DNA of 64,000 bases, taken from an uncultured archaeon (lineage in GTDB: Archaea; Asgardarchaeota; Thorarchaeia; Thorarchaeales; Thorarchaeaceae). Shown piece by piece: positions 34,507 through 49,090 of this stretch. The DNA is taken from assembly GCA_964473825.1 (NCBI GenBank), contig CAYYQL010000001.1:64001-128000 (forward strand), written 5' to 3'. The notes beneath the pieces were generated by a model. The model was not told the DNA's origin and ran no database searches. It saw nothing but the letters and a program-made list of their open reading frames with translations. Positions within the stretch are counted from its first letter, which is position 1. Every line of letters begins with the position of its first letter. The translations under genes and the position numbers were made by a program.

Positions 34507-37500
34507 CTACTTCTTCCTCCGCTTCCTGTAGCCCTGCAACGGAACTACGACAACCGCGAATAATATCGGAACTCCAATGAACGAACCAACAAGGATGGAG
34601 TCGATGAGCGGTCCGAGCCCGCTTGGCGACGGTGGTGCAGGCGGAATCGGTGCAGGCAGTGTGTGTGCCACAACATAGACATGATCTCCACCGTAGCACA
34701 GGACATCCCTGCCATTCATGTCATAGAACCGTCCCACGATAGGATCGTGGTTGGCACCTAGGTCGTCTCTCCAGTAGTGCCACAACAGCCTTCCGGTCTC
34801 TCCGTCAACAACGTTGATATATTCCCTGTTTGTCAACACAAGGTCATCCCATGTGTCACCGTTCATGTCCGCGCAGACAATCTTCGTGTCCTTCCCGCCC
34901 AAGACCAGTGGGGCGTTATACTTCCAGACCTGCGTTCCAGCAGCATTGTAGCCCACTGCTCCTATTCGTTCAACGTTGATGATGACTTCTTCTGAGCCAT
35001 CATTATTGTAGACATCACCCACAGCAATGTCCCGCACGTGACCCGTCGGAAAGGCAATCGTGGGACCGCCTCCACCTATCGTGTCTAGGAGGTGGACATC
35101 GTAGGATGAATCCATTACAATAAGACGGTCATTGGAACCACCTGTGAGATTCCCTGTGAGAAGTCGGTACGTGGATGATGGACCAATGGCCCCATCTAGA
35201 CTACCGTCATCTCCATTGTAGATCCGTGGTCGTGTACCCGACGCACCGAAGACAACATCGAGCGAGCCATCGCCAGAGAGCCGTCCCATAACGAAGTGCC
35301 AAGATGAATATGACGATGTATAGCCATCTGCAAATGTGTTGTATAGCTCGTTCCCAGCCTCGTCGTACCACGCGACATATACATTCGAACCGCCCGACAC
35401 GCGTCTTTTCAGGACAGCAATCTCGTCATAGTCATCTCCGACCGCCGTGTCGAAGTTGCCAACAAGAAGGCCGCTTATTTCATAGCTATCGCCAGCGTAG
35501 ATCTCTGTCACGTTGGCACCAGTCAGACCATCAACAACGAGGACATCTCGCAGGCCGTACCAGATAGCCACATCCTTGTGTCCATAGCCATCTATGTATC
35601 CCGTCTGCACACCTTGAACCTTGCTATTGAACGAGATATTCCACACAGGATTGGCATTGGATCCCTCCAAGAGTAGAACACTGTACCCAGACGCTGTCCT
35701 CTGGGCGACAAGCACCTCATCTACATAATCGCCAACGACATCATCTACCCAAGCGTTGTAGACGCCAGGAATCTCAGCGTCCCAGTAGATCTCATGGTTC
35801 TCATAGGCAGCCTCTTCTGCTGCCTCAGTCGGGAGCACAGCCTGACACGCGACAAGGTCTTCATTCTCGACATCCCAAGCGACAATCGAGTCATACTCGC
35901 TGCCGGGAAACCGAGCCGCAACGACCTCGGTCAAAAGACCGTCAGAGTAGTTGAACCACTTCGGAATCCCGTTCTTTCCGTCCAGTGCAAGCATGATGCT
36001 CTCATTGAATGTAGTTCCACCAGCAACGATGATATCGTAATCACCTGTTCCACCGATATGTCCGACATCAGCAGCTATTGTGAACCAGGTTGAATCTGGC
36101 TCATAGTGCCACTGGGTGACACCCGACTTTACCTCTTCAAGATATACACCGTTCTCAAGAGTCAGCGCCAGAATCTCGGTTGTTCCGTCACCATCAAAGT
36201 CCTCGACGAAGAGATTCAGTATTGTTCCCATCTGAGTCGAATTGTAGTAGATAGAGCCATTGTGGATGTCGGCGACGCGGATATTATCCCATGAGAAGAT
36301 GATGTCATCAAAACCATCATCGTTGAAGTCATGCATTCGAAAGCGACTCCACGGAAACGCTGTGCTAGCAGGACTCTGATAGAAGACGGTGCCATTCAGG
36401 GGGTTTATCACATAGAGTTCTGAACTTGCGGAGATAGCGGCTAGTTGCGGACTATCTGCTTCAGTGAAGTTGCCAATGGCTAGCTGATATGGAATTGTAC
36501 CAGTGACGTTCCAGAGATAGCGCAGACTTCCTGAAACATTCAACACGAATAGACCGCCCAGTCTGTCGCCCATCACAATCTCGGGAATCGCATCACCCTC
36601 TAAGTTTCCTGTCGTGACGCTGTAGATATCATCAGTTGAGCCATTATAGCTCCAGAGATACCCGCCTGTGGTGATGTCCAAGACATACAGATTCGTGTCA
36701 TCAGAACCAGCAAGTATCTCGGGTACCGTATCATTATTCAGGTCTGATAACAGGATGCAGTTGAAGCCATCGCCTGCGTCAGTATTCTCCCAGAACAGAC
36801 TGCCATTTGGATGGTATGCAGCCACTCGTCCGATATCAGGATTCACTGTGAATATCTCATCGTAGCCATCTCCATCGACGTCGTAGACATCGATGAGGTC
36901 AGTCCAGTACATTAGGGCAGCATTGCCGTCGGTGGATGTCGTCCATAATTGCTCGGAGTACCAGAGCTCGACAGCTCCCTCGGAAGGATCAATATACTCC
37001 CAGATATAGACGTCGCCACGTTCTGTCGCAATGCCAATCTCGTCCCAGCCGTTTCCGTTCGTATCATAGACCGTGAGGCCCGTGACTGAGTTGTCGAATG
37101 GCTTGGAAAGCCAGGCCTCCTCGTAGGTCATGAAGCCTGTCCCATTTGTGGAGTGCTTCATCTCGTACACCGCGACTTGGTTGTCAAAGCCAACGACTAC
37201 CTCTCTCCGTCCGTCTGCATCGGTGTCTCCGGTATCGAGGTCAACCACCTCTCGCAGATGATTCATCGTCCAGTCAGACTGCGGATTGATGCCATAGACT
37301 ATGTCATGAAAGGTGTACCAGAAAGCATAGTCGCCAATCAATCCTGCAGGATAGAAGACAGCAAATGAGAACGTACACGTATAGATAAACCCTGAATCTT
37401 TCGCTGGTATTAGATCGGGAGAGAACGCAGACAGCTTATAGATTGGCCAAGGAGAGCTTCCCCAGGAATAGTGTATGTACCCGCTTGGCATCTCAGTCCG

Positions 37501-48500: not shown

Positions 48501-49090
48501 TTGTAGTCACTATTGGTCTCTGATCGCTTGGCCAGTGCATCTTGGATTTCCCAGAGATCGTAGAAAATGAGAACGAGACCATCTATCTGCTCAGCCTCAC
48601 TCTGACGTATATTGGTCATCTCTTTGTCGATATGCGGAGCTAGTGACAGGGTGTTGCCCATGCCGACTACATGCTGGGTTGACCCGTGGTCGGCAAGGAC
48701 TTGATAGAACTTGTACCACGTCATATTCCTATCAGGGAACATTACGTGTTTCAGACTCGACCGTAATGCATAGACGGCAAGCCACGGCTCATCAAGAAGA
48801 TAGAAATTGAGGATGTCATACGAGTCGACTGGAATCATGATGATATTCTGAAGCCTGAAACTGAGGACTTCATTGACCGATTCCGCGATAGCACACATCA
48901 ACTCATCATCGGGGTCGTAGAAGATGTAGATGTAGTCCAAATCGTACTTCTTCGTAGGATCGGGTAGAAGCTCCTCACTTCTTTCCACGGCCTGCCCAGC
49001 CCAGACAGCCCCTGGAACCATATTCAAAAGCACAATAGTCATGAAAACTAGTGATAAAACTCTCAGTCGATGCATTTCCCGGTTTCTCAA
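42590..49090 (-). CDS. Giant (~2170 aa) surface protein: amphipathic helical region, amphipathic beta region, ~25 thrombospondin-type-3-like Ca-binding repeats, Ig-like domain, TM, Lys/Ser-rich tail
   Basis: TTG 49090, 8 nt after GGAGG (alternative ATG 49075); signal peptide; repeats TDP...DTDGDGLSDGEE at ~43180-45540; TM LVMLAIGAGIGVFAILFILFGL. Confidence 0.9.
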   Translation of the reverse strand: MRNREMHRLRVLSLVFMTIVLLNMVPGAVWAGQAVERSEELLPDPTKKYDLDYIYIFYDPDDELMCAIAESVNEVLSFRLQNIIMIPVDSYDILNFYLLDEPWLAVYALRSSLKHVMFPDRNMTWYKFYQVLADHGSTQHVVGMGNTLSLAPHIDKEMTNIRQSEAEQIDGLVLIFYDLWEIQDALAKRSETNSDYKKAHEDIQTMALKIYGDNFDAFFKRTVEPINPVGEVDEASREERTRRMWEQHAPTIEKTYYHMSEDGQLEELTEEELPEDFTPPIKISSEAELNADDLVLGEIPLLSALRGPIGEIIDVLLSVLGDSGSTVISIPSDLIETIQQLFSVIEPIIGIVADFDMESPLKSVINALANEFPFMAEFKDYLNIIMKALFNFRGDLGSILEIVGDLVQVLLPDSVPDMLKDFIGQILDADDGLWNAISSLVKGEKGIFDAIFSFFTTNTLESLLNKTLAATIGMIPSEVSTLLPRIVSFIKSIVSFITSGNFLDFIEEVGTDLLGSILSVTGLEDVVDKVMSIIHMAMSVVDLVDEFDTTTLIQLAQSMLDDIVGASNIPGGVEDLAKDIFGVIKTFQEDGLSDFSAFTSQIQTILDSGITGVSGEVKDIVRDVISLVSGLFVEGFDKSALPDIFEIAEDVATEFLGSGVADVVEAFNQALKPILGVIAIATNKDALKQMVSKTVDNFVSELSDIPSMVKNVIKFLDTEDAFPTSPGPVALAADGELDAILDTAGEIVGGIINMVQGIKGQSFQGVMQALLMSAGSILGSFPAFDDVPIDAVLKLFQSFFPEAFGLDKDDMPSAIQIIDEILDLAEGLIGGSLDLEMVKEILSFFMDIKDIFTNGVKWLLGKVFDWLGGLLNPVLEDIENTIEGLFAGLDDILGFSGSLPVGLGDWSLFDLTYALGIRANFAIDLDPIFDMVVSMIFDAREVFSMANIGDFFKTLFSFFEISPQFYAELGVGGFDTEKNPLMKTMLTTLGLKLSFEGSAKFVLNLFTFKNGQFDFDNFFRIVEWGLHIKIHIGKVFTLLDFLTAGVGGGALNAVAEFLGLDSITVEVYFEIIIDIIKKAASSTEPEVSSMTLTIIFGVAIHIPIELIIVAITIDGSLEIILTFFQDFASPSPMKITLRLIFTVKVKFRFLFISDSAKFTWEPGGPWDLSPSKGEDEYESSGVGFDSDGDGLSDSYEDSVPGLDKNKADTDDDGANDKLEVQTIGSDPVNPDTDGDGLLDGEEWELGTNPMREDTDWDDVSDYDEVRKYLTDPLIQDTDGDGLSDAYEIRTKLDISNVTPTVTEVIIGGESYNDRTDPLNPDTDGDGLLDGDEGPMGAYYGDPALYNDTEDEDTGDWVMDPNPLIFNGGFTHPLDADTDDDSELQLYNGVVDSQAYLFLKDMNDGAEVAGFWIIVYDDEGEPENKQVFTNPCNPDTDGDTGVTDRTPQPGAWLNSDGYELAQTPPTDPTDGDSDDDGLLDGLEGVLSQYSNHTNPLDPDTDDDGLFDMQEILLGTDPRSQDSDGDMISDGDEFYKFFTNPLLWDTDFDGLSDGEEVFFWHTNPLIDDSDADRLPDGVEVLIYGSDPMDEDGDNDGLTDFEEIKVWYTDPFEYDTDGDGLSDGEEVELYGTDPLVWDTDGDSITEPNQDGEMTFPLSDYDEVMIYHTNATDADSDQDGLRDSIELYLNSGLIPWTDPIALDPNNKDTDGDLIPDGSELAIENVSGLIYPFRAMTLVYRYNTSPVDADSDGDLLTDYQEVMVFNSQPYNNDTDNDTLTDYQEIWIYNTSALFNDTDGDGLYDFEETLVEVYPYGPWPPENWSIGMEPAEYLAAWENGFSTAEGSVTPVFALAQEPLYPTLATDPDSDDDWLPDGSEINFYHTNPMDSDSDNDGIEDGMEFDSDFDGLEDGLEFKLGLYWAGGGVFNPDSDADGLPDGAEYYLYGTDPGKTDSDGDGYPDGMEVSIGTDPLTNTTRTDYEYYLSVMRGKASMDILMPMGAVKNAITADVNVLNFTPFEQMYYRYNTSDGWSANFSLTYNPSTMTWTNTTVQWEERGYVLQVFALDSEGDTHAAQRYFTVAAVPTYPEPLHPLVMLAIGAGIGVFAILFILFGLPRIKEYWEKRQAAKAAESPPEEEAKVEKSTSKKKSTSKKKSTSKKKGSSSKSKKGGA
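42627..42680. repeat. 18-bp tandem repeat x3 encoding the (KSTSKK) repeats of the cytoplasmic tail
   Basis: TTCTTCTTACTCGTCGAC at 42627 and 42645 (identical) plus a variant at 42663. Confidence 0.9.

Follow-up and report, generated by a model that had tools for sequence, protein, structure and literature searches.

A conserved Asgard gene pair encoding two giant, predicted surface proteins with TSP3 and FG-GAP repeats

RTX adhesins such as LapA and MpIBP use very long, acidic, calcium-stiffened extenders to present ligand-binding modules far from the cell, each as a single secreted chain held in an outer-membrane pore. In Myxococcus xanthus, the 1130-aa outer-membrane lipoprotein CglD combines COMP/TSP3-like DxDxDG repeats with VWA/MIDAS (metal-ion-dependent adhesion site) and EGF-like repeats, and is required for calcium-dependent gliding motility on rigid surfaces (bioRxiv 10.1101/2023.10.19.562135). 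FG-GAP blades fall within a VCBS/FG-GAP beta-propeller supercluster that takes in integrin alpha, tachylectin, ITFG and BBS2/BBS7 (PMC8023676). Among the Asgard archaea, L. ossiferum has no S-layer and displays unassigned "complex surface proteins" (PMC9834061), and Asgard crawling on dynamic protrusions requires adhesion, although the molecule responsible has not been named (PMC13716822). Here we analyze a 64-kb stretch of DNA from an uncultured archaeon (contig CAYYQL010000001.1, positions 64,001–128,000, referred to hereafter as the window), the minus strand of which carries two adjacent giant genes: A, whose product bears TSP3 repeats, and B, whose product bears FG-GAP propellers. We hold, with slightly more confidence than doubt, that A and B are two subunits of one Asgard cell-surface assembly, co-made from a single coupled message; we infer their physical binding, its calcium dependence and its role, which is probably calcium-dependent adhesion or envelope structure.

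Gene arrangement and conservation across Asgard genomes

The ORF list for the window places two long open reading frames (ORFs) on the minus strand, at 42590..49132 (A) and 34507..42939 (B). Gene A itself (42590..49090, assigned from its translation, start context and orthologs) encodes a type I membrane protein made up of a novel head, a TSP3 stalk, a transmembrane (TM) helix and a tail, and gene B (34507..42588, assigned from its translation, Pfam matches and homologs) encodes a 2693-aa membrane protein with multiple FG-GAP/VCBS beta-propellers. Two starts come into question for A: TTG 49090, for a product of ~2166 aa, and ATG 49132, the alternative with the longest ORF, for one of 2180 aa. 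The TTG has a GGAGG 9 nt upstream and an N-terminal length that agrees with A homologs. For B, GTG 42588 is the most likely start; the longer 5′ extension of its ORF only overlaps the A tail in another frame (B residue numbers taken from the motif and repeat scripts run one below the numbering from this GTG). The joint between the genes reads GGAGGTGcgTAGaGTG (...AAG GGA GGT GCG TAG a GTG), such that the stop codon of A (42592–42590), a single spacer base (42589) and the GTG of B follow one another directly, with the Shine–Dalgarno (SD) sequence of gene B, GGAGGTG (42595..42601, minus strand), lying within the final codons of A, 6 nt 5′ of the start. The initial annotation had described just such an arrangement—two genes 1 nt apart with the SD inside the upstream one—and the joint bears it out. 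Upstream of A, a TATA-like TTTATAAA is found at about 49290; a scan for bacterial-consensus promoters and terminators, a consensus not suited to archaea, gave counts equal to those of shuffled sequences.

The nearest homologs are named Candidatus Thorarchaeota, which identifies the source as an Asgard archaeon, as had been thought probable. Scanning for the A family across prokaryotes, with each species represented by one genome, returned 59 loci, 45 of them with DNA downstream of A. B lies directly downstream of A on the same strand, with a gap of 0–15 nt, or is fused to it in frame, in 44 of these 45; at the one exception a B-like gene is found upstream instead, also on the same strand. Synteny, a check proposed with the initial annotation, holds from Thor to Heimdall. 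The A-then-B order, the short gap and the SD in the last codons of A are kept in Thor, Loki, Hermod, Hod and Heimdall genomes, and in most loci compared A ends in K-x-G-G-x, which encodes the SD of B, even where its tail has only a few residues. The gap measures 3 nt in L. ossiferum strain B36 and 0 nt in a Heimdall metagenome-assembled genome (MAG), with unrelated flanking genes; the L. ossiferum orthologs are, for strain B35, NEF87_004127 and NEF87_004126 (UYP47842.1 and its neighbor) and, for strain B36, XEO79399.1 and XEO79398.1.

Both families appear, from the sequences retrieved, to be essentially Asgard-only. Close database relatives of the A head number about 70, at ~2200 aa each, and the named ones are all Thor, Loki (including the cultured L. 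ossiferum), Hod, Heimdall or Promethearchaeota, and an exhaustive profile search with a trimmed head alignment gave 148 matches among 1.84 billion cluster representatives. Homologs of the first propeller of B number 154, all named ones being Asgard (Odin, Njord and Kari included), and some B relatives carry beta-helix/NosD and BNR domains in addition. At E ≤ 1e-20 the A family is present in 90 of 301 sampled Asgard genomes, distributed by taxonomic family as 44/76 (the family of this genome), 10/11, 12/21, 10/28 and 0/68. By label, 57 of the 59 loci are Asgard or "uncultured archaeon" MAGs; the two exceptions lie on a 1.6-kb "Aegiribacteria" contig and on a 36-kb "Bathyarchaeota UBA233" contig with an adjacent pair (L072, DAZI01000072.1, "Candidatus Bathyarchaeota archaeon UBA233"). 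The latter pair shows 36% identity in the A head and comes from a 1.6-Mb MAG in which we found no actin family match; it reflects either mis-binning or horizontal transfer.

Fusions and duplications also treat A and B as a unit. In-frame A–B fusions occur in six MAGs (L019, L022, L025, L026, L040 and L044) at two separate positions in the trees, implying that they arose independently; in these single ORFs of > 4300 aa the A tail runs straight into the B leader, and database proteins of 4348–4684 aa likewise carry both TSP3 and FG-GAP (P0081, P0136, P0138). Unless processed by cleavage in the manner of a polyprotein, such a chain would span the membrane three or more times. One genome (G039, contig 23, 437–15144, minus strand; locus L092) holds a second pair in reversed order, B (2711 aa) then A (2195 aa) with a 16-nt overlap, which forms a deep lone branch in both the A and the B tree. 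The genome under study itself contains a small paralogous cassette, A′–B′–C′, of three overlapping minus-strand genes on contig 26 (L076; 8398–13182, 2519–8401 and 706–2508, respectively), a gene order that recurs in no fewer than four further genomes of the family: in A′ (1594 aa) a related head and TSP3 repeats are joined to a TM helix and a K/S tail, B′ (1960 aa) combines FG-GAP blades with an inserted NHL propeller (Pfam matches to NHL, Vgb-lyase and SGL-type propellers) but no C-terminal TM helix, and C′ (600 aa) comprises fn3 and a C-terminal TM helix. For 35 loci, the A-head tree and the tree of the B N-terminus agree with a patristic r of 0.93 and 18 of 32 bipartitions in common, figures that relatedness inflates; independently of species phylogeny, within-genome duplicates of A and B fall in matching clades. 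In genome G023 another B-like gene lies downstream of the pair. In a Heimdall MAG (RDOB01000006.1, 16661–26660; locus L016), B is longer (3112 aa) and ends with no obvious TM helix, and a third large gene (> 919 aa, with a faint PPC match) begins 18 nt further on.

Domain architecture of the two proteins

Hydropathy supports the earlier assignment of a signal peptide and a single C-terminal TM helix to each protein, each having an N-terminal leader. The signal peptide of A (48998..49090, minus strand as are all features of the pair; residues 15–45, h-region VLSLVFMTIVLL) would be cleaved after AVWA|G, judging from sequence and hydropathy, and the homologs in the head alignment share this N-terminal pattern. 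The stalk (43193..45550, residues 1195–1980) comprises 25 TSP3-type calcium-binding repeats according to Pfam, motif counts and a self-built hidden Markov model (HMM), with 17 strict DxDxDG motifs and a match of A to Pfam TSP3_bac (PF18884) of 79.2 bits (cut-off 25, E 1.9e-22); tandem DxDxDGxxDxxE repeats scoring above the Pfam cut-off identify it as a bacterial-type TSP3 array. The 25 or so repeats first reported are thus confirmed, and the description of A as a TSP3 giant is apt for the stalk; it overlooked the head, the first ~1150–1180 residues and more than half of the protein, which is not TSP3.

Beyond the stalk, a membrane-proximal block (42863..43165, about residues 1990–2090) has conserved columns across Thor, Loki and other families and no Pfam match; it is followed by the TM helix (42764..42829, residues 2102–2123, from hydropathy and sequence) and a K/S-rich cytoplasmic tail of about 57 aa ending KKGGA (42593..42763). 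A further hydrophobic stretch, residues 1103–1120, is modeled as a beta-strand and not as a TM helix. That one partner has a long cytoplasmic tail, as the initial annotation proposed, is true of Thorarchaeota only, the Loki, Hod and Heimdall orthologs compared ending 6–20 residues past the TM helix; being specific to this lineage, the tail is not a conserved integrin-like signaling tail.

The A head, whole or in pieces, had no Pfam match, and a profile search against PDB sequences gave no match either. Searched against the ESM Atlas it returned nothing usable by features (best score 0.84) and barrel-like rows alone by shape (template modeling (TM)-score ≤ 0.44). We modeled residues 1–1190 with AlphaFold2 (AF2) from a 22-sequence alignment, reaching a mean predicted local distance difference test (pLDDT) of 75 and a predicted template modeling score (pTM) of 0.50. 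The most conserved and best-modeled part is an alpha/beta domain (48347..48955, residues 60–262, pLDDT about 90) in which W139, H154, N160 and D184 are invariant and which has neither a conserved Cys nor DxSxS. Structure searches with the model give it a flavodoxin-like three-layer fold, with tied matches to SAVED-CHAT (Z 11.2–11.3), PurE (10.2), PBP/LacI (about 10), legumain (9.2) and receiver domains (Z 9–10). Since it lacks the conserved Cys and the DxSxS, the domain is not an active protease of the caspase-like kind, nor is it a VWA of the MIDAS type; the candidate of an active clan CD Cys protease was also rejected for want of any Peptidase_C14/CHAT Pfam match, and a distant VWA kinship of so generic a flavodoxin-like fold is possible.

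The remainder of the head divides into a helical region (46421..48175, residues 320–904), acidic, 48% hydrophobic and marked by an invariant GPIG at 321–324 (from AF2 secondary structure, composition and alignment), and an antiparallel beta-sheet (45608..46420, residues 905–1175) of about 11 strands of 8–19 residues, joined in the AF2 model by strands from residues 265–312. One face of these strands has a Kyte–Doolittle average of 2.1–3.6, the opposite face being polar. The sheet aligns weakly with membrane beta-barrels, namely CymA (Z 10.8, root-mean-square deviation (rmsd) 7.0 Å), the autotransporter barrels EspP, BrkA and Hbp (Z 8.2–9.2, rmsd 7.5–9.3 Å) and TonB-receptor models (TM-score 0.38–0.44 by target). 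The top Foldseek rows for the head are lipid-transfer proteins of the MTP, lipovitellin and ApoB type (E 1.8e-3 to 1.3e-2, TM-score about 0.1); these proteins are missing from the VIA top 50, and we keep them as a weak lead.

Protein B begins with a leader (42514..42588, residues 2–25) of KKR and an 18-residue h-region, conserved across loci and followed by a conserved G-x-F-G-x-I-P-x-x-P motif; its sequence would suit either a signal peptide or a signal anchor that stays uncleaved. Pfam matches to FG-GAP_3 (96.3 bits, cut-off 26.9) and FG-GAP (37 bits, cut-off 22.1), together with 14 canonical calcium loops and 18 recognizable FG-GAP blades (motif count and self-built HMM), place B in the FG-GAP/VCBS superfamily; the 28–30 DxDxDG blades first counted are too many. 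An AF2 model of residues 1–1190 (pLDDT 77, pTM 0.71) shows about 15 four-stranded blades and adds many degenerate blades to those recognizable from sequence. On this model the presence of several propellers is certain, and the earlier figure of at least four is plausible, with about 15 blades already in this part of the chain.

The first propeller supplies the most conserved part of B, with dense invariant columns over its blades 1–5 (41455..42318, residues 91–378, pLDDT about 90). Because single seven-bladed propellers align to the model across 91..1021 (VIA, Z 28–33), we regard this propeller as interrupted by an insertion of about 600 aa (39667..41454, residues 379–974), predicted by AF2 secondary structure to contain an irregular beta domain and a second propeller, and as resumed by one or more closing blades (39499..39666, residues 975–1030), placed from the VIA alignment ranges and not from coordinates. 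The same slot is filled by the NHL propeller in the small paralog B′, which suggests that the insertion is an exchangeable module. Other Pfam matches in B comprise a lambda-carrageenase propeller (48.8 bits, cut-off 26.8) and cross-matches to Beta-prop_BBS7 (49 bits) and BBS2_Mid (37.6 bits), both above their cut-offs; the BBS2_Mid match covers 27 residues of one blade (profile positions 2–28 of 108), and the two are best read as shared VCBS blades. The chain ends, after a Pro-rich linker, in a TM helix (34537..34608, about residues 2661–2684, from sequence and hydropathy) and a 9-aa cytoplasmic tail, QGYRKRRKK (34510..34536).

Asp and Glu make up 26% of the TSP3 stalk and 16% of B, and the stalk and B together contain 46 N-x-S/T sequons, a composition that would be as expected for archaeal surface glycoproteins. 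The leaders, C-terminal TM helices, basic tails and acidic, sequon-bearing ectodomains of calcium-binding type point to a surface location for both A and B.

A candidate two-subunit assembly and its alternatives

We propose that the TSP3 stalk of A would hold the novel head away from the membrane, and that B would be anchored in the same membrane, displaying several propellers of which the first carries an exchangeable insert. Ribosomes ending A would restart on B, or read through the fusion in some lineages; the two chains would then enter the membrane side by side and in equal numbers, and would stay together as a heteromeric, calcium-stiffened structure that would either mediate contact with surfaces or partner cells or, where cells have no S-layer, act as an envelope scaffold. 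The initial annotation had argued from coupling to a stoichiometric complex; the conserved coupling, the fusions and the co-segregating duplicates fit 1:1 co-production and a shared function, and the heterodimer itself we infer.

Several points weigh against a joint assembly. Tight operons also contain proteins that never touch; the features of A and B that were examined indicate no ligand; the propellers resemble lectin and enzyme types too (lambda-carrageenase in B, NHL and Vgb-lyase in the paralog); and the model-based fold assignments for the A head are weak. The pair is patchy: 90 of the 301 Asgard genomes sampled have the A family, and one taxonomic family has it in none of its 68 genomes. 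The pair is therefore not a universal envelope component. A can also be lost or broken, to judge from a genome of the same genus (G002, locus L093, 437–6996) in which A is split into ORFs of 690 and 1542 aa beside an intact B, either as a broken gene or as an assembly error. A complex prediction of B residues 88–378 plus 975–1030 with A residues 58–262 returned no verdict (score 0.00) and counts neither for nor against binding; propeller 1, being discontinuous, could not be excised cleanly.

We consider it unlikely, although it fares best among the alternatives, that A and B are independent giant surface proteins (adhesins or lectins) whose common promoter and coupled translation serve co-regulation alone, without formation of a complex. 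Giant repeat adhesins often act alone, and extra giants do trail the pair, as with the second B copy in G023 and the third giant gene at the Heimdall locus. Against such independence stand the fusions at two separate tree positions, the reversed pair that still overlaps, duplication as a unit with matching trees, and adjacency at 44 of 45 loci despite unrelated flanks; B′, moreover, lacks a TM helix of its own and must therefore be held by a partner.

It is very unlikely that the pair serves nutrient capture, with the B propellers binding or cleaving polysaccharides or other polymers and A acting as a scaffold that holds them off the membrane. The lambda-carrageenase propeller match in B, the NHL, Vgb-lyase and SGL matches in the paralog, the B relatives with beta-helix/NosD and BNR domains, and the presence in the window of three beta-helix surface proteins and a penicillin amidase would all suit such a role; but the enzyme-type matches are explained by shared FG-GAP-like/NHL blades, no catalytic motif was identified, propeller 1 (the most conserved part of B) has no enzyme family match, and the features of A suggest no substrate handling. 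Least probable of all, and highly so, is a membrane-active A head whose long amphipathic strands and hydrophobic helices insert into or grip a lipid bilayer, be it that of a partner cell, of a vesicle or of a protrusion of the cell itself, while B recognizes the target, making the pair a contact, tethering or lipid-handling apparatus and not a passive adhesin: the sheet of about 11 strands with one greasy face, the 48% hydrophobic helical region, the alignments with transmembrane barrels (CymA, EspP, BrkA, Hbp and TonB-receptor models) and the lipid-transfer proteins atop the weak Foldseek rows hint at it, but all of these matches are weak (rmsd 7–9 Å, Foldseek E > 1e-3), the lipid-transfer rows are gone in the second look with VIA, and the greasy face may pack on the helical region as an ordinary core in a model whose pTM is 0.50.

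Returning to the joint assembly of A and B, its conservation as an Asgard-restricted two-gene unit makes it a concrete target for the adhesion question, with orthologs in the cultured L. ossiferum, for whose strains B35 and B36 proteome data sets exist already (PRIDE PXD074767 and PXD055577, respectively); the A head of ~1100 aa in addition contributes a module without a recognizable family. A bolder extension, which we rate as decidedly unlikely, would make the pair an Asgard two-subunit calcium-dependent adhesion receptor that accounts for the "complex surface proteins" seen by electron cryotomography, supplies the missing adhesion component of crawling and syntrophic contact, arose independently of integrins in the lineage leading to eukaryotes and possibly possesses a lipid-gripping head.

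Elsewhere in the window, three tandem paralogs of ~1250–1270 aa (4133–16038, plus strand) encode large surface proteins in which right-handed beta-helix/NosD repeats are combined with a PKD-like domain at the C-terminus. Just downstream of B (25426–32531) lies a cluster of PAS/GAF histidine kinases together with a double-receiver response regulator, a neighborhood that is not conserved at the L. ossiferum or Heimdall loci. On the other side of the pair, a luciferase-like monooxygenase gene (50329–50874, minus strand) is apparently truncated, covering profile positions 24–173 of 314; beside it, a 207-aa ORF (49687–50310, plus strand) joins a MerR helix-turn-helix (MerR-HTH) to a Cas12f1-like TNB (TnpB-type zinc ribbon) and may be a mobile-element remnant interrupting the monooxygenase gene. 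A 102-aa ORF at 49304–49612 has no Pfam match.

Comparison with known systems

The initial annotation recognized no described system with this pairing, and the literature on Asgard archaea in connection with integrin, FG-GAP, thrombospondin and the cell surface likewise yields no description; those terms and the L. ossiferum locus tags led us to no paper on the A–B pair, and the tags and accession were not found in the supplementary files searched of PMC9834061, 10.1101/2025.11.30.690169 and 10.64898/2026.07.02.735847.

Integrins provided the original analogy, which stands as an architectural one only, since membership fails on every integrin motif that was tested. The likeness lies in two type I membrane subunits, one with FG-GAP calcium-binding blades and the other with an alpha/beta head on a stalk, both with short basic tails, provided that A and B do assemble. 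The differences on the side of B are several propellers with a nested insertion and the absence of thigh and calf legs (no Integrin_alpha2 match at E ≤ 0.01, further propellers following instead) and of GFFKR in its tail. The VIA top 50 for the B propeller consists of generic WD40, EPTP, BBS2 and lectin propellers (Z 27.8–32.8); integrin is not among these listed rows, which leaves room for an integrin match further down. On the side of A, a TSP3 stalk and a novel ~1100-aa head take the place of VWA/MIDAS, EGF stalk and NPxY: A has no VWA Pfam match and no MIDAS signature (DxSxS...T...D) in the alpha/beta head, its 2180 aa include 2 Cys where integrin beta has a Cys-rich EGF stalk, and its tail lacks NPxY. 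Nor does A resemble thrombospondin or COMP past its repeats, where there is no TSP_C (their C-terminal domain) or other Pfam match and the conserved block and TM helix are found instead.

Within the VCBS supercluster, the B blades match FG-GAP_3 and FG-GAP, and BBS2 is among the tied structural matches (Z 29.7), a match generic to seven-bladed propellers; B differs from the BBSome in being a 2693-aa extracellular, membrane-anchored propeller array in which no BBSome platform or coiled-coil parts were detected. The nesting of one propeller within another recalls DDB1, SF3B3 and CPSF160, and the best Foldseek matches to B residues 1–1190 are DDB1 and SF3B3 (E 2.5e-15); with a TM-score of about 0.2 and an rmsd > 20 Å to these cytosolic or nuclear WD40-like scaffolds, the resemblance is one of layout, not kinship.

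Set beside the RTX adhesins, A and B are two coupled, TM-anchored chains in a single-membrane archaeon, and we view the pair as varying a known theme, that of the repeat adhesins. Among described prokaryotic systems the nearest analog would be CglD, which like A is a prokaryotic surface protein with DxDxDG calcium repeats and is proposed to act with a partner adhesin, CglB; A differs in being TM-anchored, archaeal, ~2170 aa long and devoid of VWA, and the partner of CglD is a VWA protein where that of A is a propeller giant.

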